The notes beneath the pieces are model-generated. The model did no database searches. It was not told where the DNA came from and saw nothing but the letters and a program-made list of their open reading frames with translations. The position numbers and the translations under genes were made by a program. Shown here piece by piece: positions 6,413 through 36,815 of a stretch of DNA of 36,815 nt. Numbering within the stretch: the stretch's first letter is position 1; each line of letters begins with the position of its first letter. Source of the DNA: a virus. Where the stretch lies: IMG/VR virus record IMGVR_UViG_3300044998_000754; one strand, given 5' to 3'.

Positions 6413-6432
6413 GTCCGTGAACCATCACGGAC
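6413..6432. promoter_or_regulatory. Operator-like palindrome, copy A (GTCCGTGAACCATCACGGAC)
   Basis: Matches 15 of the 16 fixed positions of GTCCG-N-GAA-NN-TTC-N-CGGAC. Lies in the protease-capsid intergenic gap, 35 nt upstream of the capsid ATG. Confidence 0.55.
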
Positions 6433-6466: not shown

Positions 6467-7693
6467 ATGAGCACCCCACAGATCAAGGCTCTGTTCGAGG
6501 AGCGGAGCAAGGCCGCCCACGACCTCCGAGCCCTCTACGACGCCGCCGGCACGGAGGACCTGACCGCAGAGCAGGTCCAGACCGAGGAGCGCCTCCACGC
6601 CGTCATCTCCAACGCCGATGAGCGGATCAAGAACCTCCTCTCGGTCTCCGAGGGGGAGGAGCGCGCCGCCGAGGCCTGGAAGGACCTCGGGAACCGTGAG
6701 CCGGACGCAGCGCCCGCCGACGAGGTCCGGTCCGACGAGGACATCCTCCGGGCCGTCGCCCGTGGCGAGCAGCGGTACGCCGAGTTCGGCTTCGAGCAGC
6801 GCGGCACCGCCACCCTCATCAAGGGCACGGCCGCCATCGGCGGCAACACCGTCCCGACCTCGTTCTACGACACCCTCGTGGAGTCGATGACCGAGGTCTC
6901 CACCGTCCTGACCGCCGGTGCAACCGTTCTCCGCACGGCCGGCGGTGAGAAGATCCTCGTCCCGACCGCCACGGCGTTTCCGGAGGCCGCCCTCGTGGCG
7001 GAGAACGCCCAGATCGGGAACCAGGACGCTACCTTCGGGCAGAAGGAGCTCGACGCCTACAAGTACGCCTTCACCATGCAGGCATCGAGCGAGCTGCTGG
7101 CGGACACCGGCGTGGACCTGACGGAGTTCCTGGCCCGCCGTGGTGGCGAGGCCCTCGGCAACGCCGTCGGCACCGCCTCGATGACCGGCACCGGCTCCGG
7201 GCAGCCTCAGGGCATCTACGCCTCCTCGGGCGGTCTCGGGACCGTGGCCTCGGCGTCCGGCTCGGTGGCAGCGGGCTTCCGGTACGAGGACATCATCGAC
7301 CTCGTCCACAGCATCACCCGCCCCTACCGCAACGGCGCATCCTTCATCGCCGGAGACCACCACATCAAGGGTCTCCGCAAGCTCCGTGAGGGCTCCGGCA
7401 CCGGTCAGTTCCTGTGGCAGCCCGCCATCACGGCCGGCGAGCCCGACACCCTGGCCGGCTTCCCCGTCTACACCGACCCTGCGGTTCCGACCGCCACGAC
7501 CAACGGCTCCAAGGGCATTGCCTTCGGCAACTGGAAGCGCGCCGTCATGGTCCGCTTCGCCGGCCCGGTCCGTGTCGAGGCCTCGGACGACTTCCGGTTC
7601 GACTACGACGTGACGACCTGGAGGTTCATCCTCCGGTTCGACTCCGAAGTGGTCGATCCCGCCGCCGGCAAGGTCCTGACCTACACGACCTGA
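6467..7693 (+). CDS. Major capsid protein, HK97 fold
   Basis: 408 aa. Charged, coiled-coil-like N-terminal delta-type region followed by an HK97-like core, ending ...VRVEASDDFRFDYDVTTWRFILRFD. RBS aaggagg. Confidence 0.9.
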   Translation: MSTPQIKALFEERSKAAHDLRALYDAAGTEDLTAEQVQTEERLHAVISNADERIKNLLSVSEGEERAAEAWKDLGNREPDAAPADEVRSDEDILRAVARGEQRYAEFGFEQRGTATLIKGTAAIGGNTVPTSFYDTLVESMTEVSTVLTAGATVLRTAGGEKILVPTATAFPEAALVAENAQIGNQDATFGQKELDAYKYAFTMQASSELLADTGVDLTEFLARRGGEALGNAVGTASMTGTGSGQPQGIYASSGGLGTVASASGSVAAGFRYEDIIDLVHSITRPYRNGASFIAGDHHIKGLRKLREGSGTGQFLWQPAITAGEPDTLAGFPVYTDPAVPTATTNGSKGIAFGNWKRAVMVRFAGPVRVEASDDFRFDYDVTTWRFILRFDSEVVDPAAGKVLTYTT

Positions 7694-15426: not shown

Positions 15427-16224
15427 ATGACAGTCCTGAATCGGTCCGAGTGGGGAGCCTCGATCCCGACCGGACCGCCGATGCGGACACCGATCCCGAC
15501 CATCTTCATTCACCACTCGGTCACCCGTCCGTCGACCAACCCCGCCCGTGACTTCCGGGACATCGAGGCTATCGGCCGAGCCAGGTTCGGGCGCTTCTCG
15601 TACTCCTGGGTCGTTCACCCGAACGGCACGGCCGGCGAGGGAGCCGGGCTCACCGTCGGCGCTCACACCGGAGGCCACAACTCCACATCTCTGGGTATCT
15701 GCTTCATCGGCAACTACGAGCAGGACCGTCCGACGGCCGCTTCCCTCAACACGGCCGCCGACATCATCCGCTACCTCCAGGTCGCCGGCATCGTTCCCCG
15801 TGAGGTCGTCATCCGACCGCACCGTGACGTCAAGTCCACAGCGTGCCCAGGTCGTCACCTGGTAGCGGCCCTCCCGACACTCCGGGACCTGGTCGCTCGC
15901 CCGCTTCCTGGGCCGACGCCGGCCCCTCGACCGACCCCGCCGCCGGGCACCGATCTGACACGCATCAGTCAGGCCCTGGACGAGGCCTCCAAGCAGACGC
16001 TCCGGGTCGGGTCCCGTGGCGACGCCGTGAAGTGGGCGCAGGCCCTCGTGAACCAGAAGGTTCCATCGGCCAAGCTCGCCGTCGATGGTGTCTACGGCCC
16101 GAGCACGGCCGCCGCCGTCCGGCAGTTCCAGGAGAACGTACAGAGGTTCTTCCGGCTCTCCCCAAAGCAGTTCCCCGCAGACGGTGTGGTCGGGCCGTCG
16201 ACCTGGAAGATGCTAAGGGGATGA
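15427..16224 (+). CDS. Endolysin: N-acetylmuramoyl-L-alanine amidase (Amidase_2/PGRP) with a C-terminal PG_binding_1 domain
   Basis: IFIHHSVT, GAHTGGHNSTSLGICFIGNY and HRDVKSTACPG (zinc amidase motifs). The C-terminal GSRGDAVKWAQALV...VDGVYGPSTAAAVRQFQ...DGVVGPSTWKML is a peptidoglycan-binding repeat. Confidence 0.9.
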   Translation: MTVLNRSEWGASIPTGPPMRTPIPTIFIHHSVTRPSTNPARDFRDIEAIGRARFGRFSYSWVVHPNGTAGEGAGLTVGAHTGGHNSTSLGICFIGNYEQDRPTAASLNTAADIIRYLQVAGIVPREVVIRPHRDVKSTACPGRHLVAALPTLRDLVARPLPGPTPAPRPTPPPGTDLTRISQALDEASKQTLRVGSRGDAVKWAQALVNQKVPSAKLAVDGVYGPSTAAAVRQFQENVQRFFRLSPKQFPADGVVGPSTWKMLRG

Positions 16225-17205: not shown

Positions 17206-17231
17206 GCCCTCCGGCCCAACGGCTGGAGGGC
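17206..17231 (+). terminator. Hairpin terminator at the end of the structural/lysis operon
   Basis: GCCCTCCGGCC-caac-GGCTGGAGGGC (11-bp stem with one mismatch) followed by the T-rich cttccttgcgttct. Confidence 0.65.
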
Positions 17232-17246
17232 CTTCCTTGCGTTCTG

Positions 17247-17266
17247 GTCCGAGAAATTTCACGGAC
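17247..17266. promoter_or_regulatory. Operator-like palindrome, copy B (GTCCGAGAAATTTCACGGAC)
   Basis: Matches 16/16 fixed positions. Ends 4 nt upstream of the -35 box of the early promoter. Confidence 0.65.
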
Positions 17267-17270
17267 AGGG

Positions 17271-17299
17271 TTGACAGAGGCGCGTGAAGCCTGTATCGT
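17271..17299 (+). promoter_or_regulatory. Early promoter: -35 TTGACA, 17-nt spacer, -10 TATCGT; drives a leaderless transcript
   Basis: TTGACA at 17271..17276 and TATCGT at 17294..17299. The ATG of the first early gene starts 7 nt after the -10 box (17307) and has no RBS. Confidence 0.7.
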
Positions 17300-17306
17300 T
17301 AGAGAC

Positions 17307-17504
17307 ATGGAAACGCAGCGCCTCACCAACTGCTACCTCATCACCGGCTTTCACGTCTTCGGCCGCCGGGTCACCGCCGTCCTCGGGGAGGGGGTCTGGG
17401 GCCGACCGGAGGACGCCCTGGCAGCCGCACGGTCCGGCAACTTCCCCGGCATCGCCATCAAGGATGTCCGGACCGGCGAGGTCTACATGGTCCCGACCCA
17501 CTGA
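17307..17504 (+). CDS. Hypothetical early protein (65 aa), probably leaderless
   Basis: METQRLTNCYLITGFHVFGRR.... The internal ATG of listed ORF 17199..17504 was chosen because the upstream part covers the terminator and promoter. Confidence 0.6.
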   Translation: METQRLTNCYLITGFHVFGRRVTAVLGEGVWGRPEDALAAARSGNFPGIAIKDVRTGEVYMVPTH

Positions 17505-18005: not shown

Positions 18006-18278
18006 ATGCCCGCCGTCACCGCACCCTCGACGGTCAACTACCGCCGGACGACCTCGATGAAGGCCAACGGCCGGAACCTGGAGCCGGGGACGGAGTTCTC
18101 CGTCCGAGGGCAGCGAGGCCGGTTCCGGTTCCTGGCCCTGGTCGAGCACCTACCGACCGGTCACACATGGATCGACGCCTACGGTGGGGATCGGGACCCT
18201 CGTGGTCGTCGCCAGTTCCGAGCCTTCCGTCCCGAGGACATCCGTACCGTCCATCGGACCAAGGAGCGGCGTCGATGA
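18006..18278 (+). CDS. Hypothetical early protein (90 aa)
   Basis: ATG 18006 follows the RBS aaggagg, inside listed ORF 17730..18278, whose upstream part is Arg/Pro-rich off-frame-like sequence. Confidence 0.55.
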   Translation: MPAVTAPSTVNYRRTTSMKANGRNLEPGTEFSVRGQRGRFRFLALVEHLPTGHTWIDAYGGDRDPRGRRQFRAFRPEDIRTVHRTKERRR

Positions 18279-18472
18279 GCCCCGAGGAACTGGACAGACT
18301 GGAGGCGTTCGCTCTCAGCCTGGTCACTTGTGGTGAGTACGCCGGCCGTAGGCAGATCGTGAAGCGCGGAGGGCCGCCCTTCATGACCGGCGACGAGATG
18401 GCGGCCGAGGGTCGTCGGCTCCTGGCCCTGATCGAGAAGCGCCGTTCCGAGGAACTTCACGGACCGGACTGA
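18275..18472 (+). CDS. Hypothetical early protein (65 aa)
   Basis: ATGA overlap with the upstream stop. MSPEELDRLEAFALSLV.... Confidence 0.5.
   Translation: MSPEELDRLEAFALSLVTCGEYAGRRQIVKRGGPPFMTGDEMAAEGRRLLALIEKRRSEELHGPD
18445..18464. promoter_or_regulatory. Operator-like palindrome, copy C, weaker (TTCCGAGGAACTTCACGGAC)
   Basis: Matches 14/16 fixed positions. Lies in the last 28 nt of CDS 18275..18472, just upstream of a terminator and the next promoter-like -10 box. Confidence 0.4.
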
Positions 18473-18482
18473 CCCACCCGAC

Positions 18483-18508
18483 AGCCCTCCCTCCAGACGG
18501 GGAGGGCT
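18483..18508 (+). terminator. Rho-independent terminator
   Basis: AGCCCTCCC-8 nt loop-GGGAGGGCT (perfect 9-bp stem) followed by ttcttct. Confidence 0.75.
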
Positions 18509-18543: not shown

Positions 18544-19269
18544 ATGAGCACCACACTGACGGTCCCGGAGAACGTCGCTAGGTCGGTACGAGCCCAGCGG
18601 CAGATGATAGACGAACTGGACCGGGTTGACCTGGAGGAGTTCAGGTCAGCAATGCAGACCTGGTCCGTGACGGACCTGTCCAACGCCGGCACGGGCCTCA
18701 TCTCGTTCTACACCCGGCTCGATGAGACCAAGACGGACGTCCTCAAGGCCCCCGCCAAGGTCGTCGTCGCCCTCCGGTCGCACTTCCGGACGACCGAGGG
18801 AGACGTGGACTGGAGCGGAAGGTCCTGGGACTACCGGCAGACGGTCTCCGCCATGTACGAGGCCTCCGGCATCCCGCCGGACTCGGAGTCGAACATCCAG
18901 GCCAGTCTCCGCTACCACGTCGGGAACCTGCTGCGGGAGGTCGTTCCGGCCGAGCAGCTTGAGAGCGCCGGGCTCCTGACCAAGTCCCCCAAGGAGAGGA
19001 TGACGGACGTGCGCGCCGTCACGGCCGCTGTCCTGGCCGCCACGGACGTCGAGGTCGGCAAGCCGCCCAAGCCGGCCGAGGCCGTGAGCCGACAGGTCTC
19101 GGCGCTCTACACCGTGGCGGATCGTCTGGAGCACTCCCCGGAGGCCTGGGCCGCCCTGTCGGTCCGGCTCCTGGAGCAGTATGAGGACCGCCTGGAGGAG
19201 GTCATCGCCAAACTCCGAACGTCACTCAGTGTAGTCCAGACCGTCATTGACACCAAGATGAAGGACTGA
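18544..19269 (+). CDS. Hypothetical protein (241 aa), transcriptionally insulated by terminators on both sides
   Basis: Long GC3-rich ORF with no motif I recognise. Terminators at 18483 and 19273 flank it. Confidence 0.7.
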   Translation: MSTTLTVPENVARSVRAQRQMIDELDRVDLEEFRSAMQTWSVTDLSNAGTGLISFYTRLDETKTDVLKAPAKVVVALRSHFRTTEGDVDWSGRSWDYRQTVSAMYEASGIPPDSESNIQASLRYHVGNLLREVVPAEQLESAGLLTKSPKERMTDVRAVTAAVLAATDVEVGKPPKPAEAVSRQVSALYTVADRLEHSPEAWAALSVRLLEQYEDRLEEVIAKLRTSLSVVQTVIDTKMKD

Positions 19270-19272
19270 TGT

Positions 19273-19297
19273 AACCCTCAACCTCGACTTGAGGGTT
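19273..19297 (+). terminator. Hairpin terminator (AACCCTCAA-cctcgac-TTGAGGGTT)
   Basis: Perfect 9-bp stem, 4 nt after the stop codon at 19267..19269. Confidence 0.6.
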
Positions 19298-19334
19298 CAC
19301 GGAGCGTGGCGGACGTGGCACGGAGAGCGCGATC

Positions 19335-19696: not shown

Positions 19697-20473
19697 ATGA
19701 CCACTCCGCAGGTCCCCACCATCAAGCGCCAGGGCTCGCGCTTCTACGTCCACCCGCTCACGGACCAGAAGGCCGTCGGCGTCACCTCGGTCCTGAACAT
19801 GCTCCCCAAGGAGTTCCTCAAGTTCTGGGCCGCCAAGGTCACCGCCGAGACCGCCGTGGACCAGTTCTCGACCCTCGCCAGCTTCGTCGCATCGGGCAAC
19901 CGAGAGGACGCCGTGGACTGGCTCAAGAGGGCACACTCCCGGAACACGGCCGGCGCTGCCGACGTCGGCGGTGACGTTCACGACCTGGTGGAGCTTCTGG
20001 CGCGGGGCCGACCGCTCCCGCCGGTCCATCCCGACGTCCAGCCCTACCTCGACCACTTCCGTGAGTTCCTGGACGTGTTCTCTCCGGACTTCATCTTCAT
20101 CGAGGAGACTGTGTGGTCGGAGACTCACGGCTACGCCGGCTCCTTCGATGCCATCGCCCGCATCGGCTCCGAGACGGTCATCATCGACTACAAGACGACC
20201 CGCTCCGGCGTCCACGCCGAGGTCGCCCTCCAGTTGTCGGCCTACGAGCGCGCTGACTACATCCTCCGCCCCGACGGGACCCAGGAGCCGATCCCGGACC
20301 TCGACGCCGCCGCCGTGCTGCACCTGCGGCCCGAGGGCTGGAAGCTCGTCCCGGTCCAGACCTCCGACGAGCTGTTCGACGTGTTCCTGGCCCTCAAGCA
20401 GGTCCATCGTTGGGACAAGGAGCTGTCCAAGGTCGTCATCGGTCAGCCGATCCGAGTGGAGGACGTCCGGTGA
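19697..20473 (+). CDS. PD-(D/E)XK exonuclease (RecB-type; the family annotated as Cas4-family exonuclease in actinophages, but with no Cys cluster here)
   Basis: 258 aa from the internal ATG with RBS ggagga. Motifs GSFDAIARIG...TVIIDYKTT and LQLSAY. The upstream part of listed ORF 19484..20473 is Pro/Arg-rich non-coding-like sequence. Confidence 0.7.
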   Translation: MTTPQVPTIKRQGSRFYVHPLTDQKAVGVTSVLNMLPKEFLKFWAAKVTAETAVDQFSTLASFVASGNREDAVDWLKRAHSRNTAGAADVGGDVHDLVELLARGRPLPPVHPDVQPYLDHFREFLDVFSPDFIFIEETVWSETHGYAGSFDAIARIGSETVIIDYKTTRSGVHAEVALQLSAYERADYILRPDGTQEPIPDLDAAAVLHLRPEGWKLVPVQTSDELFDVFLALKQVHRWDKELSKVVIGQPIRVEDVR

Positions 20474-21083: not shown

Positions 21084-21103
21084 GTCCGTGAAGCTTCCCG
21101 GAC
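21084..21103. promoter_or_regulatory. Operator-like palindrome, copy D (GTCCGTGAAGCTTCCCGGAC)
   Basis: Matches 16/16 fixed positions. Intergenic, and embedded in a larger hairpin: GAGAGCCGGTCC at 21076..21087 pairs with GGACCGGCTCTC at 21117..21128. Confidence 0.6.
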
Positions 21104-21194: not shown

Positions 21195-21854
21195 ATGCCC
21201 ATCAACATCTTCGCCAACGCCGAGAAGCCGTCGGCACCGACGAGCACCGACATCGTCGGCCGCTTCCGGGCCGGCCGTCAGTTGCAGGGTCGTCCCATGA
21301 GCCTGACGACCTGGCGCATCACGACCGGCGATCCCGAGGTCGCCAAGGCCGTGGCCGACGAGTTCGGTGCGATCGAGGGTCCCCAGGAGTGGGAGACCAA
21401 GACGGAGGAGCGGCTGGAGGTCATCACCTTGACCAACTCCGTGGACGTCATCTTCCACCGTCCGGAGCACGTCTCGTCCGAGATGGTGCTCTGGGGGCGC
21501 AAGAAGAAGCTCCGGTCGTGTGACGGTGTCGTCCAGGCCGACGGCTCGCCCTGCGCCTGTCCGTCGGACTTCTCCGAGCGGGTCGCCCGAGCCGGCGACG
21601 GTTCGGCCTGCGAGCCCTCCGTCTCGTTCCTGTTCTCGCTGGCCGCACTTCCGGACCTCGGGCGCTTCCGCTTCCAGACTGGAAGCTGGACCGTCGCTCG
21701 TCAGATCGGTCAGGTGGAGGCCGCCCTCGTCGGCATCGGCGGCCCGGCCAAGGCCACCCTCCGGCTGGAGCGGCGGACCCGCAAGGACGCCGGCACGACC
21801 TACACGGTCGCCGTCGTGGACGGCATCGTTCCGGTCGAGGAGGCCCTGTCGTGA
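21195..21854 (+). CDS. Conserved-looking replication-module protein with a Cys cluster (function unknown; gp3-like RDF is only a speculation)
   Basis: 219 aa from ATG 21195 after the RBS aggagg. ...LRSCDGVVQADGSPCACPSDF...GSACEP.... Confidence 0.6.
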   Translation: MPINIFANAEKPSAPTSTDIVGRFRAGRQLQGRPMSLTTWRITTGDPEVAKAVADEFGAIEGPQEWETKTEERLEVITLTNSVDVIFHRPEHVSSEMVLWGRKKKLRSCDGVVQADGSPCACPSDFSERVARAGDGSACEPSVSFLFSLAALPDLGRFRFQTGSWTVARQIGQVEAALVGIGGPAKATLRLERRTRKDAGTTYTVAVVDGIVPVEEALS

Positions 21855-22052: not shown

Positions 22053-22216
22053 ACAGCTCCGCCGACAGCGCCACGATCAACGTGGAGGTCCCCGCCTCCA
22101 CCGCCACGATCATCGCTACCGGCTCGTCCGTGGTGGCCTACAGCGCCGCCGCCAGGGAGGTCCTCCGACTCGTCCGGCTGGCCTGGGCCGAGGTCAACGA
22201 GGAGATGGAGTCGTGA
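22049..22216 (+). CDS. Hypothetical protein (55 aa)
   Basis: ATG after the RBS gaaggag. It is in the same frame as the 5' part of the HTH gene, so the ORF track fuses them as 21851..22216. Confidence 0.5.
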   Translation: MNSSADSATINVEVPASTATIIATGSSVVAYSAAAREVLRLVRLAWAEVNEEMES

Positions 22217-22395
22217 CACAGACGGTCATCATCTTCTTCGTGCTCCTGCTCCTGGTGAGCCTCCTCGGCGGCTGGGCGCTCATGCTCACCGTTGCGCTCC
22301 TGGGCGGTTCGGTGTCGTTCGGTCACTCCGTCCTGGCCTTCCTTCTTCTCCGCACCCTCGTTCTTGGAACCCCATTCCGCAAGGAGTCCGACTGA
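22213..22395 (+). CDS. Small membrane protein (60 aa, two TM segments)
   Basis: GTGA overlap with the upstream stop. TQTVIIFFVLLLLVSLLGGWALMLTVALLGG...LAFLLLRTLVLG. Confidence 0.55.
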   Translation: MTQTVIIFFVLLLLVSLLGGWALMLTVALLGGSVSFGHSVLAFLLLRTLVLGTPFRKESD

Positions 22396-28753: not shown

Positions 28754-29058
28754 GCGCCGAACGCATCCTCACCCTGATCGAACACACCCGCAAGGACCTC
28801 GACCTCCTGGAGGCCAACGTCCGACGGGCAGCCTCCGTCCAGTGGGAGCGCCCAACATCCCGACGGACTTCGGCATCGGACATCAAGGCCCGAGGAGGTC
28901 ACCGGGACCCGACCGGCGACACCGCCGTGGACCCTGTGCGGCTCTCCGTCCGACGCTCGATCGTCCGGACCGACACTGAGATGGTCAAGGTCGCCCGCAC
29001 CGTCCGAGGGCTCGCCGGTCTGGTCGGGCATGCCGTCGGAACCTGGGAGAAGGGTTGA
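28750..29058 (+). CDS. Hypothetical protein (102 aa)
   Basis: ATGA overlap with the upstream stop. MSAERILTLIEHTRKDLDLLEANVRR.... I have no confident family assignment. Confidence 0.55.
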   Translation: MSAERILTLIEHTRKDLDLLEANVRRAASVQWERPTSRRTSASDIKARGGHRDPTGDTAVDPVRLSVRRSIVRTDTEMVKVARTVRGLAGLVGHAVGTWEKG

Positions 29059-29061
29059 CCG

Positions 29062-29081
29062 GTCCGAGAACCTTCACGGAC
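29062..29081. promoter_or_regulatory. Operator-like palindrome, copy E (GTCCGAGAACCTTCACGGAC)
   Basis: Matches 16/16 fixed positions. Starts 4 nt after stop 29058, upstream of the small basic ORF and the sigma factor gene. Confidence 0.65.
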
Positions 29082-29115
29082 CGGTCAAAGACACCGTCTC
29101 CGGTGCCGATAGGGA

Positions 29116-29424: not shown

Positions 29425-30138
29425 ATGACCATCGACAACGATAGCCCTGATGCGTTCTCTCCTCAAGGTCAGTACCTTCCTCACGACGTTCTTCATCGTG
29501 AGGTCCGTGTTATCGCCCAGGCCGCTCTCCGCCGCCGGCCCCGGTCCGTCGGTCGAGCCCTGACGCTGAACGACCTCATCTCCGAAGGTTGGATCGCCGC
29601 CGACGAGGCTATGTCCAGGTTCGACCCGGAGAAGGGGGAGGCACTTCACTACGTCCGAGCCAAGGTCCGCCGCCGGCTCAACGACGTCCTCCGGCGTGAA
29701 GGACACACCGCCTCGGTCAGCGCCAGGACCCTGCACCGAGCGGCCGCCGGGGAGCTGAGCGAGGAGTCTCAAGCCCTGGTCGAAGCCTCGTCACCGACCC
29801 GTCGGGTCTCGATCGTTCCCGGCAACCCGGAAGGGCCGGTCGCTCCTGGCTCGATGCCCCAGGAGTGGCTCCCCTCTAGGGACGAGCCGACCATGGAGGA
29901 GATCGTCGCAGCCACCGAGGTCCGCTCGATCGTCCATCACCACCTCGACGTGCTGGCCGAGACCAGGCCCCAGCAGGCGGAGGCCGTCCGTCTCTCCTTC
30001 GGGATCGACGGTCCTGCCCTCTCTCGGCCCGAGATTGCGGACAAGCTCGGCACGACTGTGGAGAACGTGAAGAAGCTCCGCCAGCGTGGACTCGCTGCTC
30101 TCCGGGAGCAGGTTGCAGTCATCGCCCTCTGGGAGTGA
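29425..30138 (+). CDS. Phage-encoded sigma-70 family RNA polymerase sigma factor
   Basis: 237 aa. Region 2-like DLISEGWIAADEAMSRFDPEKGEALHYVRAKVRRRLND. Region 4-like AVRLSFGIDGPALSRPEIADKLGTTVENVKKLRQRGLAALR. Confidence 0.75.
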   Translation: MTIDNDSPDAFSPQGQYLPHDVLHREVRVIAQAALRRRPRSVGRALTLNDLISEGWIAADEAMSRFDPEKGEALHYVRAKVRRRLNDVLRREGHTASVSARTLHRAAAGELSEESQALVEASSPTRRVSIVPGNPEGPVAPGSMPQEWLPSRDEPTMEEIVAATEVRSIVHHHLDVLAETRPQQAEAVRLSFGIDGPALSRPEIADKLGTTVENVKKLRQRGLAALREQVAVIALWE

Positions 30139-31594
30139 ACACCGCCCGGTCCGGGTCGAACGTCCCTCGCCGGGACCCGGACGGTAGGACCGTCACCCGT
30201 TCCATGACCGCCCGGATCAAGGCCGGAGCGTGCTCCGAACGAAGGAGCAGGTCTCCCGGTTCATCGTCGTCCGCCGCCATGACCGGGTCGAGGACCGTGC
30301 TCAGATCAACCGGAGCGGGCTCCAGCCCTTCTAGCTCCTGGCGGAGTCCGCCGAGCCGTTCCTGGAGCCGAGAGACCTGCCGAGCGTACCGGTCTCCGGC
30401 GATGAGACCGTCCGCACGGTCGTCGTCCAGGTTCTCCAAGGCCTTCGTCACGACCTCGATCTCCGAGCGGATCGCTCGTCTCCTACCCTCGTCCTCCACG
30501 GCCTCGTCGTCGGCCACGATCCGAGCGATGGCGGCCAGGGCCTCGGGCTCGGCGTCTGGGTCGATGGCGGCTAGCTGGGCCGAGGTCCAGGATGCAACGA
30601 GCCGGTCGAGTGAAGGCATGGAGACCGAGATGTCGCATCCGATCCGGGAGCACCGGTACCGGCCTCGTCCGGAGTCCTTCGATCGGTCGCCATAGAGACG
30701 GGAGCCGCAGAGCCCGCAGTAGGCCACTCCTCGGAGCAGTGAGGGCTCACCTCGTCCGGCCCGACCTCTCCATGTCCGAAGGCGCTCTTGGAGCCGGAGG
30801 AAGGTGGTCTCGTCCAGCACCGCCTCATGGACCTGGACCGGTAGACCGTCCTCACTCACCACGACCCGCCGGGCATCCCGAGGGCCACCGTCAGGAACCC
30901 ACCCGGCCAGGTAGACCGACCGCAAGGTCCTGGTCAAGGACGTGATGGTCCACTCAGCTCCGTTCCGGCCGCGGTGTCCGTTGTCGTTCAGCCATCGGAC
31001 CTGCGAAGCAACCGAGGCTCCGCCGATGATGGTCTCAGCCACGGCCCGCACGATCGGTCCCTCCTTCTCGTCCACGACCAGACGTCCGGCCTCCAACCGA
31101 CATCCGAAGGGGACTCGCCCGCCCTGGAACCGGGGATCGTTCCTTCGGATCGAGGCCTTGGCCTCCTTCACCTTCTCCGACCGTAGGTCAGACTCCTGCT
31201 TGGCGAACGCTGCGAACAGAGAGAACACGGCTTGAGCGATCGGGGAGTCGGTGCTCAAGAACGGCTCCCCGACGGAGACGAGCTTCACGCCGGCCTCCTC
31301 CAGGGTCTCCACGATCTCCAGGGCTTCCCTGATCCCGCGCCGGGACAGTCGGCTGAGGTCTCGGACCACGACCCGGTCGACCCGTCCGGCTCGGACGTCT
31401 GCCAGCACCGCATCAAGTCCAGGCCGCTGGACCGAGACATCCCACCCGGACACTCCGATGTCCTCGTGGAAGCGAACGAGGTCCCAGCCCTGGGACTGGC
31501 AGAACGCTTCGATGCTGGCCCGTTGGCTCTCTGGGCTGGCCTCGGAGTCCTTCCGTCTGGACTGACGAACGTACCCTACCGCTCTCGGTCTCAC
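30119..31594 (-). CDS. int: Large serine recombinase (serine integrase)
   Basis: AVGYVRQS (catalytic Ser), RPGLDAVLADVRAGRVDRVVVRDLSRLSRR, a recombinase domain, the Zn ribbon CGLCGSRLY...YRCSRIGC, and a coiled-coil tail. GTG 31594 puts the Ser at residue 12; the maximal ORF extends to a TTG at 31669. Confidence 0.88.
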   Translation of the reverse strand: MRPRAVGYVRQSRRKDSEASPESQRASIEAFCQSQGWDLVRFHEDIGVSGWDVSVQRPGLDAVLADVRAGRVDRVVVRDLSRLSRRGIREALEIVETLEEAGVKLVSVGEPFLSTDSPIAQAVFSLFAAFAKQESDLRSEKVKEAKASIRRNDPRFQGGRVPFGCRLEAGRLVVDEKEGPIVRAVAETIIGGASVASQVRWLNDNGHRGRNGAEWTITSLTRTLRSVYLAGWVPDGGPRDARRVVVSEDGLPVQVHEAVLDETTFLRLQERLRTWRGRAGRGEPSLLRGVAYCGLCGSRLYGDRSKDSGRGRYRCSRIGCDISVSMPSLDRLVASWTSAQLAAIDPDAEPEALAAIARIVADDEAVEDEGRRRAIRSEIEVVTKALENLDDDRADGLIAGDRYARQVSRLQERLGGLRQELEGLEPAPVDLSTVLDPVMAADDDEPGDLLLRSEHAPALIRAVMERVTVLPSGSRRGTFDPDRAVFTPRGR

Positions 31595-31610
31595 CCCTCC
31601 GATCCTAGCC

Positions 31611-31652
31611 GGGGAGACGTCGCCACTGCCCAGGCAAGGGCAACGTCTCCCC
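31611..31652. repeat. 42-bp element with perfect 10-bp inverted arms (GGGGAGACGT ... ACGTCTCCCC), followed by the tandem octamer CCCCGTGT x2 (31649..31664)
   Basis: Read directly from the sequence. Lies immediately upstream of the probable int start. Candidate attP core or int leader structure. Confidence 0.5.
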
Positions 31653-31687
31653 GTGTCCCCGTGTGGCAATATAGACAGTGAGACCTA

Positions 31688-31712
31688 GGACTCCTTCTGC
31701 TTCCCGGAGGCC
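31688..31712 (+). repeat. 25-bp direct repeat, copy 1 (GGACTCCTTCTGCTTCCCGGAGGCC)
   Basis: 23/25 identical to 31964..31988. Lies 34 nt upstream of ATG 31746. Confidence 0.8.
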
Positions 31713-31745
31713 TCGGAACGTCCGTCAATCTTGTAGGGAGCTTCG

Positions 31746-32342: not shown

Positions 32343-32590
32343 ACGCCGACACGACCGGTCAGCCGTCCAGAAGTTCACAGGTTTGGGCCGACGGAAGCCC
32401 CGGCCCAGGTCCGTGCGCTCATTCTGAGTTGCGATTTGTTCTCGAGACTCCTTCTCGGACCCTCCGGTCGTTGCCGTTTGAGCCCGCTCCACCGCCTTGG
32501 GGAGCGTGTGGCTCCGGCCGCCCTGGAGGGTCCTGAACCCGTCCATCCGGGCCTGCACCGGTCCGCTGACACCGTCTGGAGCCTTCGATC

Positions 32591-33307: not shown

Positions 33308-35842
33308 ATGCCGACCGTCACGACCGAAGTCTCACTCCTCACGGGCACCGACGACGCCACCTACGACAACAGCTCCTACACCGACAGCGCTAACACACAT
33401 TGGATCGGCGTCCGCCGCTCCAGCGGCGTCACGGTCGGGAACTGGGGAGGCTTCCGGTTCCGCATCCCGACGTCGGTGGACCCTTCCCGCATCACCTCGG
33501 TCAAGCTCTCCCTCTACAACATCACGGCCGGTAACACCGTTGAGGCCGTCATCCGGGTCGAGCAGTCCGCCGCCGCCGCTTGGTCATCGTCCGGCTCCAA
33601 CCGCCCGGACAACCGCTACAACGCCGTCGGCTCGTCCGGGGAGGTAGCGTGGAACTACACCTCATCGGTGGGCCGGGTCGAGTCGCCGGACATCTCGGCC
33701 CGCGTCATCTCGGCCCTGGCGAACATCGACCAGGGCTCGGACTACCTCGGCATCCTCATCGGTCCGTCCGCCGCCACGGTCTCACGACGAACGCAGTATT
33801 CGTCTCAGGACACGAGCACGGCCGCCAACCGACCGCTGCTCATCATCACGGAGGACGTCCCCGCCGAGGACGCCGAGGTCACGACGGTCGCTCCATCGGT
33901 CGCTGCCCAGACGCCCGACGACGTCGAGACGGGAGCCTGGACCGAGCACCTGGACGTCTCCTACCACGACGGGATCGGCTCCAGCACACGCCGCTCCTGC
34001 AACGTCTACGTCCCCTACGGGACGCCCCCGAGCGGGGGCTGGCCGGTCATCCTGTTCGTCCACGGAGGCTCCTGGATCGGCGGGAGCCGAAACTCCATCA
34101 CCTCCAAGCTCATCACCAGGTCGATCTCGGCCGGCTGGGCCATCATCTCGATCAGTTACAAGCTGTCGGACTGGAACGTCCTGCTCAACACGAACACCGG
34201 AGCCAACCGCCCGTCTCACACCCAGGACGTCCTCTGCGCTACCAAGTGGATCGCCGCGTCGGCCGCTGACACCTACGGGCTGAACCCGGACAAGCTCGTC
34301 GGGATGGCCTACTCGGCCGGCGCTCATCTGCTGCTGGAGGCCGCCCTCCTCATCGAGGACCCGGACCGCGACACCTACGTCATGGCCTACAACGGCGCTT
34401 CCGGAACGGAACGCCGTACCACCTACAACGCCTCGACGGTCCTGAACTTCACACAAGGTCGGACCGGCTTCCCATCGTTCCGAGGTCTGTTCCTCTGGGC
34501 CGGCCCGGTCCGGTTGTCGGAGCTGTACGGCATCCCGCTCGTTCAGTCGGCCGCCCGCGGCTACATCGGACAGCTCCCGAACAACTCCCTCTCCAACACG
34601 GCCACGGCCGGCGAGGGCAACCTGAACGACTTCATCACGGCCGCCTCGGGCAGCATCTACGACACCCGCTCCGAACGTGTCCCGCCGTTCCCGATCGCGT
34701 ACTGCGAGGACACCACGGACCTGATCGTCCCGCCCGACGCCGGACTCACCCCGCTACGCGCCGCCCTCGACGCTGTCGGCTACGACGTGTCCGCTGGCAA
34801 CGGAGTCGTCAACCCTGACGGCCTGTCCTACCGCAGCTACGCCGGCTCGGGCCACGACTGGCTCCTCGCCCAGAACGATTGGACCTTCTGGCGGAACTGG
34901 CTTGACGCCGTTCCACTCGGTGGCGAGGACGACACGGTCACGACCACGGCACCCTCGGCCGCCGCCAGCACCGGCTCCCCGACGGTCACCATCTCGGCCG
35001 AGGTCACGACCACGGCCCCCTCAGCCGCCGCCAGCACCGGCTCCCCGACGGTCGAGACCGGCTTCGGTGACGACGTCGATGTCACCGCTCCGATCGCCCA
35101 GGCCTGGACCGGCGACCCAACGGTCTCCATCTCCGCCGAGGTCACCACCACGGCACCCTCGGTCACCGCCGGCACCGGCGACCCAACGGTTGACGCCGGC
35201 TCCGGCGACACGGTCACCACCACGGCACCCTCGGTCACGGTCATCACCGCTGAGCCCTCCGTCTCCACGGCCACCGCCGGAGAGGCCGACCCAGCGGCCG
35301 CCGCCCTGGTCCTCGGGACCGGCGAGGCTACCGTCGTCGTCGTGGACGCCGAGGTCCTGACCGCTGCTCCGACGTTCTCCGTCACCGCCGGAGAGGCCTC
35401 CACCGCCGGCTCCACCGAGGTCACCGCCACGGCACCCTCGGTCGCCCTTGACCTCCCGGCTCCGTCGGTCTCCACGGCCGCCGCCGGAGAGGCTGACCCC
35501 GCTGCGGCCGGCTTCATCCTCGGCACCGGCACACCGACAGTCTCGGTCTCCTCCTCCGATGCGGTCACCGTGGCCGCTCCTGGGTTCGTGGCCGGCGTCG
35601 GCCTGGCGGACGCCTCGTCCGGAGCCTCGGTCGCCACCGCAGCACCGGCGCTCGTCGTCTCGGCCGACGCTCCGACAGTCGTGACCGACGCCGCCGTCTC
35701 CACCACGGCCCCGACGGTCACCGTCACAGCGCCGGCCCCGAGCACCGGCACCGGTCTCGTCCTGGTCACGGCCGCCAGACTCCTCCCTCCGTCCTGGAGC
35801 GCCGTTCTCGTCCCGACCTCACTCGCCCGCCTGAGGAGATGA
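33308..35842 (+). CDS. Large multidomain protein: DNRLRE-like beta-sandwich N-terminus, alpha/beta-hydrolase (esterase) domain, and an Ala/Thr/Ser/Val/Pro-rich repeat tail
   Basis: 844 aa. HGGSW oxyanion-type motif at 34061..34075. Nucleophile-elbow-like GMAYSAGA, with the Ser codon at 34313..34315. GSGHDW lies near the end of the domain. The C-terminal 300 aa are built from VTTTAPS-type repeats. Confidence 0.7.
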   Translation: MPTVTTEVSLLTGTDDATYDNSSYTDSANTHWIGVRRSSGVTVGNWGGFRFRIPTSVDPSRITSVKLSLYNITAGNTVEAVIRVEQSAAAAWSSSGSNRPDNRYNAVGSSGEVAWNYTSSVGRVESPDISARVISALANIDQGSDYLGILIGPSAATVSRRTQYSSQDTSTAANRPLLIITEDVPAEDAEVTTVAPSVAAQTPDDVETGAWTEHLDVSYHDGIGSSTRRSCNVYVPYGTPPSGGWPVILFVHGGSWIGGSRNSITSKLITRSISAGWAIISISYKLSDWNVLLNTNTGANRPSHTQDVLCATKWIAASAADTYGLNPDKLVGMAYSAGAHLLLEAALLIEDPDRDTYVMAYNGASGTERRTTYNASTVLNFTQGRTGFPSFRGLFLWAGPVRLSELYGIPLVQSAARGYIGQLPNNSLSNTATAGEGNLNDFITAASGSIYDTRSERVPPFPIAYCEDTTDLIVPPDAGLTPLRAALDAVGYDVSAGNGVVNPDGLSYRSYAGSGHDWLLAQNDWTFWRNWLDAVPLGGEDDTVTTTAPSAAASTGSPTVTISAEVTTTAPSAAASTGSPTVETGFGDDVDVTAPIAQAWTGDPTVSISAEVTTTAPSVTAGTGDPTVDAGSGDTVTTTAPSVTVITAEPSVSTATAGEADPAAAALVLGTGEATVVVVDAEVLTAAPTFSVTAGEASTAGSTEVTATAPSVALDLPAPSVSTAAAGEADPAAAGFILGTGTPTVSVSSSDAVTVAAPGFVAGVGLADASSGASVATAAPALVVSADAPTVVTDAAVSTTAPTVTVTAPAPSTGTGLVLVTAARLLPPSWSAVLVPTSLARLRR
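34937..35560 (+). repeat. Nested coding tandem/dispersed repeats (66-bp unit at 34937 and 35003; degenerate copies at 35141, 35213 and 35420; about 207-bp-period pair at 35261 and 35468)
   Basis: Direct reading: gtcacgaccacggcaccctcggccgccgccagcaccggctccccgacggtc is repeated 66 bp later with 2 changes. Confidence 0.8.
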
Positions 35843-36149: not shown

Positions 36150-36815
36150 GCAGGACCGTCAACAGCACAGATCGACCGGTCCCACCGCCGAGCCTGTCCG
36201 GCGTCCGTCTCTGGGACGAGTTCTCACCAGAGTGGAACGAGCCGGTCGCCAACCGCCGGTCCGATCCCGACAGAACCGCCAGACTCCAGGCCTGGGACGA
36301 CAGAGTCCGATGCCACCTCAAGGGTCCCTACCCCGGCGGCATCCCGTGGCAGCGTGTCGATGGTGTCCACTTCACTAGGGTCTGGTACGCCTCGCAGCGG
36401 CCAACGTTCCGGGACCCGTTCCCGTGCGTCCGGCTCCCACTTCCGTCTGTCGTCCGCCGCTACGGTGACCCGTCGGCGGACTGGACCGACGCCCAATGGT
36501 TCGGGATCGACCTGGAGCGCCGGGTCTACTACGAGGCCTCATCCATCGGCCCCGCCTTCCTCGGGTTCCCGCACCCGTGGCGCGCCGACAACATCAAGGT
36601 CTACGACCTGTCCCGAGACTGGCGCTCGCAGGATCGCTCCATCACCGGCTCCGGCGTCCCGATGCTCCCGATGGTCCCCCGTCCCGAGGAGCTTCGGCGT
36701 GGTCCTGGGGGAGTCACACACGCCCTACACTTCGTCGCCGCCGGCTACGCCCCGGAGATGACCGGCATCGCCCGCAAGACGGACGGCACCATCCCAGGTC
36801 ACCCTCTCCGGGCCG
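36146..36815 (+). CDS. 5' part of the junction-spanning CDS (continues at 128..339 after collapsing the overlap)
   Basis: Hand translation from ATG 36146 to the window end has no stop codon, and it is in frame with ORF 70..339 via the 127-bp identity. Confidence 0.75.
   Translation, partial: MSRTVNSTDRPVPPPSLSGVRLWDEFSPEWNEPVANRRSDPDRTARLQAWDDRVRCHLKGPYPGGIPWQRVDGVHFTRVWYASQRPTFRDPFPCVRLPLPSVVRRYGDPSADWTDAQWFGIDLERRVYYEASSIGPAFLGFPHPWRADNIKVYDLSRDWRSQDRSITGSGVPMLPMVPRPEELRRGPGGVTHALHFVAAGYAPEMTGIARKTDGTIPGHPLRA
36689..36815. repeat. 127-bp terminal direct repeat, identical to 1..127
   Basis: See the feature at 1..127. Confidence 0.95.

Follow-up and report, generated by a model that had tools for sequence, protein, structure and literature searches.

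What is the function of a 20-bp palindromic sequence which recurs in the few intergenic gaps of a phage genome? The DNA that we have analyzed, called the window here, is a stretch of 36,815 nucleotides from a soil-metagenome phage with 67% GC, which is seen in JGI and Logan assemblies (about 36.5–36.9 kb). An initial annotation had pointed out the sequence at positions 17247–17266, with four similar copies elsewhere, and had suggested that they are the operators of an immunity or early-late switch, comparable to the conserved inverted repeats (CIRs) which bind the repressor c of Streptomyces phage phiC31. A scan of the window with the pattern GTCCGNGAANNTTCNCGGAC gives the same five positions. 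No other match is found with up to three mismatches. The copies are the following:

6413 to 6432: dyad GTCCGTGAACCATCACGGAC, one mismatch, located after the protease gene and 35 nt before the capsid ATG at 6467, in the gap that separates these two genes.
17247 to 17266: dyad GTCCGAGAAATTTCACGGAC, perfect, upstream element of an early promoter cassette.
18445 to 18464: dyad TTCCGAGGAACTTCACGGAC, two mismatches, 80 nt upstream of the gene for a protein that we call c-like.
21084 to 21103: dyad GTCCGTGAAGCTTCCCGGAC, perfect, in the gap upstream of a gp3-like gene.
29062 to 29081: dyad GTCCGAGAACCTTCACGGAC, perfect, in the gap between a DUF7169 gene and a small ORF, which is followed by a sigma-factor gene.

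The assertion that such a pattern is not expected by chance has been upheld: about 1.3e-5 exact copies should be found in the window, given its base composition. Dinucleotide shuffles contain an average of 0.51 matches with up to three mismatches, and none of 100 shuffles has five or more. A search for repeated palindromes in the window which ignores the motif returns the dyad family as its sole result. The location of the copies is not random either. As had been noted, four of the five are intergenic, a result with a chance probability (at least four of five) of 3e-5, intergenic DNA being 5.2% of the window in a gene map corrected with third-position GC, Pfam and called genes. The fifth copy, at 18445, does form the last codons of an ORF (18167–18472), followed by a terminator hairpin and then by the ATG at 18544. 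Two of the copies are close to terminators:

17206 to 17245, plus strand: terminator-like GC hairpin GCCCTCCG...CTGGAGGGC with a T-rich tail, read from the sequence.
18483 to 18508, plus strand: intrinsic terminator hairpin, downstream of dyad 18445 and upstream of the c-like gene.

The first hairpin, which a strict terminator scan did not call, closes the lysis and late unit directly upstream of dyad 17247. The same order, terminator followed by dyad, is also present in two relatives, L010 and L137. Two of the dyads are part of larger symmetric structures: 21084 sits within a longer inverted repeat, GAGAGCCGGTCC...GGACCGGCTCTC, and 29062 within a longer palindrome, TTGACCGGTCCG...CGGACCGGTCAA.

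Relatives of this phage were gathered through homologues of its exonuclease and of the 241-aa protein encoded at 18544–19269. The conservation of the dyad could thus be checked: It is present in four relatives from metagenomes, which share 50–80% protein identity with the window. L010 has two copies, L011 (which is also L012) has one, L136 has five and L137 has two, both of them perfect. In these ten copies the core is invariant, while the flanks have diverged. In addition, L139 has an identical orthologous copy of site 18445, and its c-like protein is 93% identical. The dyad upstream of the gp3-like gene is also found in L011 and L012, and in L010, L136 and L137 a dyad cassette stands at the head of the operon that contains the c-like gene. 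The dyad motif is real and functional.

Alignment of the 15 copies from five phages modifies the motif as first proposed. Its inner 18 bp are the conserved core, invariant or nearly so, but the outermost G and C of the 20-bp version are weakly conserved. The core is TCCG[A/T]GAA[A/g][T/c]TTC[A]CGGA, which may be written as two half-sites, TCCG[A/T]GAA-NN-TTCACGGA, and it is symmetric except for position 6 versus position 15. The half-site 8-mer has eight occurrences overall, 1.15 being expected. An isolated half-site, TTCACGGA, is found at 19296–19303, in the short gap downstream of the c-like gene, and two more isolated half-sites lie within coding sequence, at 2681 and 24432.

Comparison with GenBank phages by megablast gives no close relative of the window, and a metagenome search for related loci with the sigma factor as query gives none. 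With the c-like family as query, 12 distant metagenomic loci are found, none of which contains the dyad. A scan of IMG/VR for the exact pattern gives only four single matches. In a similar scan of 185,579 species genomes, the matches listed are scattered single ones across unrelated phyla. We have treated both kinds of scattered match as chance. The public loci with the exact pattern have no protein in common with the window, except for one weak polymerase match. Phage genes common to these loci and the window are absent, so the matches listed do not indicate a host regulon.

Two cases found in these searches deserve mention. In a Planctomycetia MAG, CAVRDP01, the 20-bp pattern appears at no fewer than seven separate loci, that is, at least L016, L022, L034, L039, L041, L069 and L082. 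It would seem to be a family of genomic repeats in that organism, with no relation to the dyads. The other case is L138, a bacterial-looking contig with a lone, frameshifted fragment of a c-like gene (782–1249) and a near-dyad, GTCCGTAAAGATGCACGGAC, at 1533–1552, 280 nt downstream of it. The fragment may be a prophage remnant.

A repeated palindrome might act as DNA or as RNA. The second case, in which the dyads would be hairpins in polycistronic transcripts with a role in their processing, stabilisation or attenuation, appears to us most improbable. Every copy can form a hairpin, and two of them give a good fold, 6413 with -16.4 kcal/mol and 29062 with -20.3 kcal/mol (z about -4.8), but the three other sites in the window fold no better than shuffled sequences (z from -1.0 to -1.75). 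No compensatory change is found in the 15 copies: Each departure from the consensus breaks a pair, covariation is below that of shuffled controls, and one pair of columns is unpaired in 12 of the 15 copies. There is no Rfam match and no U-tract after the dyads. Since departures from symmetry are never compensated, the dyad is a DNA site and not an RNA hairpin.

The same follows from the position of site 17247, which belongs to a promoter:

17271 to 17309, plus strand: early promoter, with TTGACA (17271–17276), a 17-nt spacer, TATCGT (17294–17299), 7 nt and a leaderless ATG at 17307.

This promoter has 10 of 12 consensus matches and is the sole sigma-70-type promoter found by a consensus scan of the 36 kb. 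Together with the dyad it forms a cassette, dyad-NGGG-TTGAC-17-TANNNT-7-ATG, which is present at this site and in seven more copies in L010, L136 and L137. The dyad is located exactly 4 bp upstream of the -35 element in all eight. Variation is found in the spacer, and none in GGGTTG, in the dyad or in the TA...T of the -10 element. The dyad of these cassettes covers positions of about -60 to -41, and the centre of site 17247 is at about -50.5 relative to the inferred transcription start. Such a dyad precedes the start and is not transcribed from it, therefore it acts on DNA.

Some other features of these promoters may be described here. The early genes at 17307, 18544 and possibly 29128 look leaderless (TANNNT, 7 nt, ATG), whereas the ribosome-binding sites of late genes are strong (AGGAGG). 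Another inverted repeat, TTGAC...GTCAA, accompanies the dyad at 17271–17293 and 29053–29090 in the window and in the cassettes of L136 and L137. In most cassettes it is TTGACG-N6-CGTCAA, which overlaps the -35 element and the spacer; at 29062 the arms, TTGACC and GGTCAA, flank the dyad itself. L009, a more distant relative without the c-like gene, has three or four promoter cassettes of its own, at 2353, 4369, 5709 and 9753, with the structure CTCCGAGATTCTTTCGGTGCGACG-TTGGTT-17-TACATT-7-ATG. Their upstream dyad, CCGAGA..TTTCGG, resembles the half-site of the window with a different spacing.

The fixed structure of the cassette suggests another explanation. The dyad might be a cis element of a mobile promoter of about 60 bp, for example a contact for host RNA polymerase similar to an UP element, with no dedicated regulator, and the copies outside cassettes would be relics of decayed ones. 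The eight copies with fixed spacing to the -35 element agree with this, and so does the A/T-rich centre of the cassette dyads (GAAATTTC), as in UP elements. These cassettes also move. One of them, in L136, has the reverse orientation, towards a minus-strand gene within the tail-gene region, so we consider the cassette as a mobile unit; the asymmetry of the dyad (GAG distal, CAC proximal) flips along with it. Nevertheless, invariance is found in the G/C-rich arms (TCCG...CGGA) and not in the A/T centre, and the stand-alone copies have a centre which contains G/C. At 6413, 18445, 21084 and 29062 there is no recognisable -35 element, spacer or -10 element, and no sigma-70-like promoter is found close to 6413 by the consensus scan. 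The stand-alone sites retain the dyad without a trace of the rest of the cassette, therefore selection acts on the dyad itself. Stand-alone copies, moreover, precede regulatory genes (c-like, gp3-like and sigma factor). We consider the explanation by a cis element alone to be quite unlikely. The dyads are, very probably, operators to which a protein binds. The motifs of LexA, Rex, CRP/FNR and LacI-type regulators, parS and the -35 elements of ECF sigma factors have been rejected as a match, since they appear to differ from the dyad in spacing or sequence.

The gene content of the phage gives an indication of what is regulated. The gene order of the window is collinear with that of phiC31. Late proteins are related to their phiC31 counterparts (TerS 41% identity, TerL 51%, portal 50%, protease 46%, capsid 33%, tail tube 40%), and so are those encoded after the lysis genes (exonuclease 43%, gp3 38%, primase 47%, polymerase 44%). 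The genes of interest are:

15427 to 16224: lysin.
18544 to 19269, plus strand: c-like protein, 241 aa, whose start looks leaderless (TACCAT, 7 nt, ATG).
19697 to 20473: exonuclease.
21195 to 21854, plus strand: gp3-like protein, homologue of the recombination directionality factor (RDF), Pfam PF18897 (2e-17), 38% identical to phiC31 gp3.
29425 to 30138, plus strand: phage sigma factor with regions 2 and 4, encoded where phiC31 has gp12.
30119 to 31669, minus strand: large serine recombinase (integrase), 516 aa, with Pfam domains Resolvase (4e-32), Recombinase and Zn_ribbon_recom.

The integrase is 26% identical to phiC31 Int over 527 aa (E 2e-21). Its gene is convergent with the sigma-factor gene, and the plus-strand ORFs in 30135–31681 have been rejected as spurious: The stretch is occupied by the minus-strand integrase gene. 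The attP site is probably in a nearby gap, 31682–31745 or 32343–32590. Since a large serine integrase is present, the phage is, judging by its genes, a temperate siphovirus and a distant relative of phiC31. Two other genes are of some interest. A class II ribonucleotide reductase gene (886–2847; Pfam RNR_Alpha, Ribonuc_red_lgC) is found in an unusual position, between TerS and TerL, and just upstream of the packaging genes an 844-aa protein (33308–35842) has an esterase/lipase-type domain (BD-FAE, Abhydrolase_3).

Which protein binds the dyads? The initial annotation had named several candidates, the first of them encoded at 18544–19269, and this one is found in the slot that repressor c occupies in phiC31: lysin, c-like, exonuclease and gp3-like genes follow each other on the same strand. 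The family of this protein appears to be a remote homologue of repressor c. In an AlphaFold2 model (mean pLDDT 85), it is all-helical, with a long C-terminal coiled coil. The close family is small, with 12 clusters among 5.8 billion proteins. A profile search extends it to a broader family of 607 clusters, which includes "hypothetical proteins" adjoining the exonuclease in about 100 cultured phages of Arthrobacter, Microbacterium and Curtobacterium.

The relationship to repressor c is only apparent when families are compared. The protein has no relative in the PDB, either in a sequence search or with Foldseek, and a comparison of its single sequence with phiC31 c is not significant. When an alignment of 64 members of the c-like family is compared with one of 31 repressor c sequences by hhalign, they match with a probability of 84.6% and E 6.8e-6 over 124 columns; reversed-sequence decoys have E values of 0.8–0.9. 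The matching region, residues 38–161 of the window protein and 397–534 of c, is within the 42-kDa isoform covered by PF25746 (Phage_Repressor_c) and omits about the first 90 residues of that isoform. With a narrow alignment of 12 c-like members, the match to repressor c is not reproduced. The window protein does not match PF25746, but 13 of the 64 family members do so below the threshold, the best with 1.7e-5. Among the predicted viral structures in BFVD, the second-best match is an "immunity repressor" of a Streptomyces phage, with a low TM-score. The hhalign E value against those of the decoys, the sub-threshold matches to PF25746 and the second-ranked BFVD structure are the reasons to suggest homology at the family level. 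Such comparisons support the c-like family as a remote homologue of repressor c, below the Pfam cut-off for membership.

A dimeric helix-turn-helix (HTH) repressor had been proposed to bind the dyads. The part of this proposal which refers to the DNA is supported, since the dyad is very probably an operator, but a canonical HTH has not been detected. In fact, a search of about 50 ORFs with Pfam and PHROGs finds no HTH, repressor or DNA-binding domain besides the sigma factor. The most conserved helix of the c-like family, QASLRYHVGN, hardly varies, even among distant members, and the dyad is absent from the loci of the latter. This is awkward if that helix reads bases. Neither must the family consist of immunity repressors: c-like proteins are found in phages such as Arthrobacter phage Sue2, which has no annotated integrase, so the family need not have this function. 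In Sue2 (L140) we have observed inverted arrays of GTGACGAAAGTGAC which flank an A/T-rich, promoter-like stretch, at 22190–22300 and 36540–36650. One array is directly downstream of the c-like gene (gp27), the second is at 36.5 kb. These arrays could be the operator of that lineage.

The binder might therefore be another one, either a different phage product or a host transcription factor, with the dyads still being operators. This is rather unlikely in our opinion. The link with the c-like protein depends on synteny, remote homology and co-occurrence: The phages with a close c-like protein have the dyad, while L015, L008 and L009 lack both, and this co-occurrence is confounded with phylogeny. 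Candidates include the gp12-like sigma protein, DUF7246, DUF7169 and any of the small early ORFs which follow the cassettes. DUF7246 is common to all the relatives which bear the dyad, and in L010 a dyad is found at the 5' end of its ORF, but L009 and Sue2 also have DUF7246, and both are without the dyad. A centre at -50.5 would be typical of an activator or of an alpha-CTD contact and not of a repressor. As for the sigma factor, which is the only one with a DNA-binding domain recognised by Pfam or PHROGs, proteins of this type recognise -35 and -10 elements, which are asymmetric, and not dyads. As to a host factor, no regulon is apparent in IMG/VR or, among the matches listed, in the 185,579 species genomes.

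The comparison with phiC31 favors the c-like protein. The likeness to the CIRs which had been suggested holds in several respects: The genome is collinear, a serine integrase and a gp3-like factor are present, a putative homologue is in the slot of c, and the sites are placed in parallel. We have analyzed phiC31 (L153) de novo in the same terms. Its only repeated palindrome is the CIR, CCTACTCACGTGAGTAGG, with about 16 copies, 15 of them intergenic. One is 70 nt upstream of c, one is inside c, two are between the polymerase gene and the sigma gene gp12, and there are also CIRs in the TerL-portal and capsid-gp37 gaps. Thus both phages have a single conserved family of palindromes, of about 17–20 bp, in intergenic gaps of the early and late regions, with one copy upstream of the regulator gene (70 nt in phiC31, 80 nt in the window) and at least one before the sigma-factor gene. 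A serine integrase and a gp3 RDF are encoded in each of them, and the regulator gene, which follows the lysis module and precedes the exonuclease, is transcribed in the direction of the lytic genes (PMC4557955).

There are also clear differences. The operator sequences are unrelated, TCCGWGAANNTTCACGGA in the window and CCTACTCACGTGAGTAGG in phiC31, and the number of sites is five as opposed to about 16. The window protein has 241 aa and lacks the long N-terminal part of c, which has 683 aa. The gene of phiC31 c gives three nested isoforms with different N-termini, and there is no sign of them in the 241-aa gene. The early promoter of the window combines the dyad, in a cassette of fixed layout, with a host-type -35 element 4 bp further downstream and a leaderless start, while phiC31 has its own repeated intergenic promoter-like motif, GGGTTGCCGACT, at 10 sites, including 22668, 23033, 25055, 27585 and 29908. 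It is presumably the early-promoter consensus of that phage. One copy of GGGTTGCCGACT is about 40 nt downstream of a CIR.

Taking these results together, we lean towards a reading in which the dyads are the equivalent of the CIRs, the dispersed operator set of a minimal homologue of repressor c in a temperate phage similar to phiC31. The operators of the immunity or early-late switch proposed initially thus find support in the collinearity with phiC31, the integrase and RDF, the protein in the c slot, the conservation of the dyad and its fixed distance to a promoter. The c-like protein, which is predicted to oligomerise through its C-terminal coiled coil, would occupy the dyads as a dimer or a larger assembly, with one half-site (TCCGWGAA) per subunit and the centres of the half-sites 10 bp apart. 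It would hold the lytic genes off in a lysogen, or late in infection.

Each site would gate a function that must be silent in a lysogen. Site 17247 abuts the -35 element of the single strong host-type early promoter, which would be shut off. The site is centred near -50 and not over the core promoter, so the mechanism of this repression can only be inferred: The protein might oligomerise and spread over the promoter, form a loop with other sites or trap RNA polymerase. Site 18445, upstream of the gene for the presumed repressor itself, would serve for autoregulation. The sites at 21084, 29062 and 6413 would gate the excision factor, the phage sigma factor and the capsid gene, respectively, either by repression of local promoters or as roadblocks, with initiation or read-through being blocked.

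Similar arrangements are found in other phages. Multiple dispersed repressor sites have been described in phiC31 and mycobacteriophage L5 (PMC4557955), and the repressor gene of R4-like phages is flanked by lysis genes and early genes (PMC4557955, PMC10276819). The stoperators of L5 gp71 and of Streptomyces phage R4 resemble the proposed system in that one repressor acts on an early lytic promoter and on many short intergenic sites, and the prophage is silenced (PMC4557955, PMC10276819). Nevertheless, L5 stoperators are asymmetric 13-bp sites which are bound by monomers and oriented with transcription, while those in the window are symmetric dyads. In this respect the sites resemble those of lambda CI and Cro, which are dyads of about 17–20 bp with a dimeric repressor and autoregulation, as we propose for the window. 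On the other hand, the operators of lambda form clusters in two divergent control regions, where they overlap core promoters. The window has single sites distributed over 23 kb, no divergent cI/cro pair, and a promoter-proximal site which is upstream of the -35 element.

A more general proposal is possible, although doubtful. The 241-aa protein may represent a large, unannotated branch of the repressor c superfamily (607 clusters at 50% identity), a general regulator of early genes in actinophages with its own operator in each lineage. In the phages studied here, this operator would have been fused to a leaderless host-type promoter, as a cassette of about 60 bp which duplicates, inverts and moves.

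To our knowledge, the repressor c and CIRs of phiC31 are one of the few known immunity systems with dispersed operators, and they are confined to close relatives among Streptomyces phages. If our reading is correct, this type of system would have a much wider, minimal version, with a 241-aa protein and a different operator of 18 bp. A family which is annotated as "hypothetical" in hundreds of actinophage genomes would gain a testable function, which would help to assign metagenomic actinophages to lifestyles and immunity groups. The operator, the TTGAC-17-TANNNT promoter and the leaderless ATG would also provide a compact, regulated promoter part for high-GC actinobacteria.
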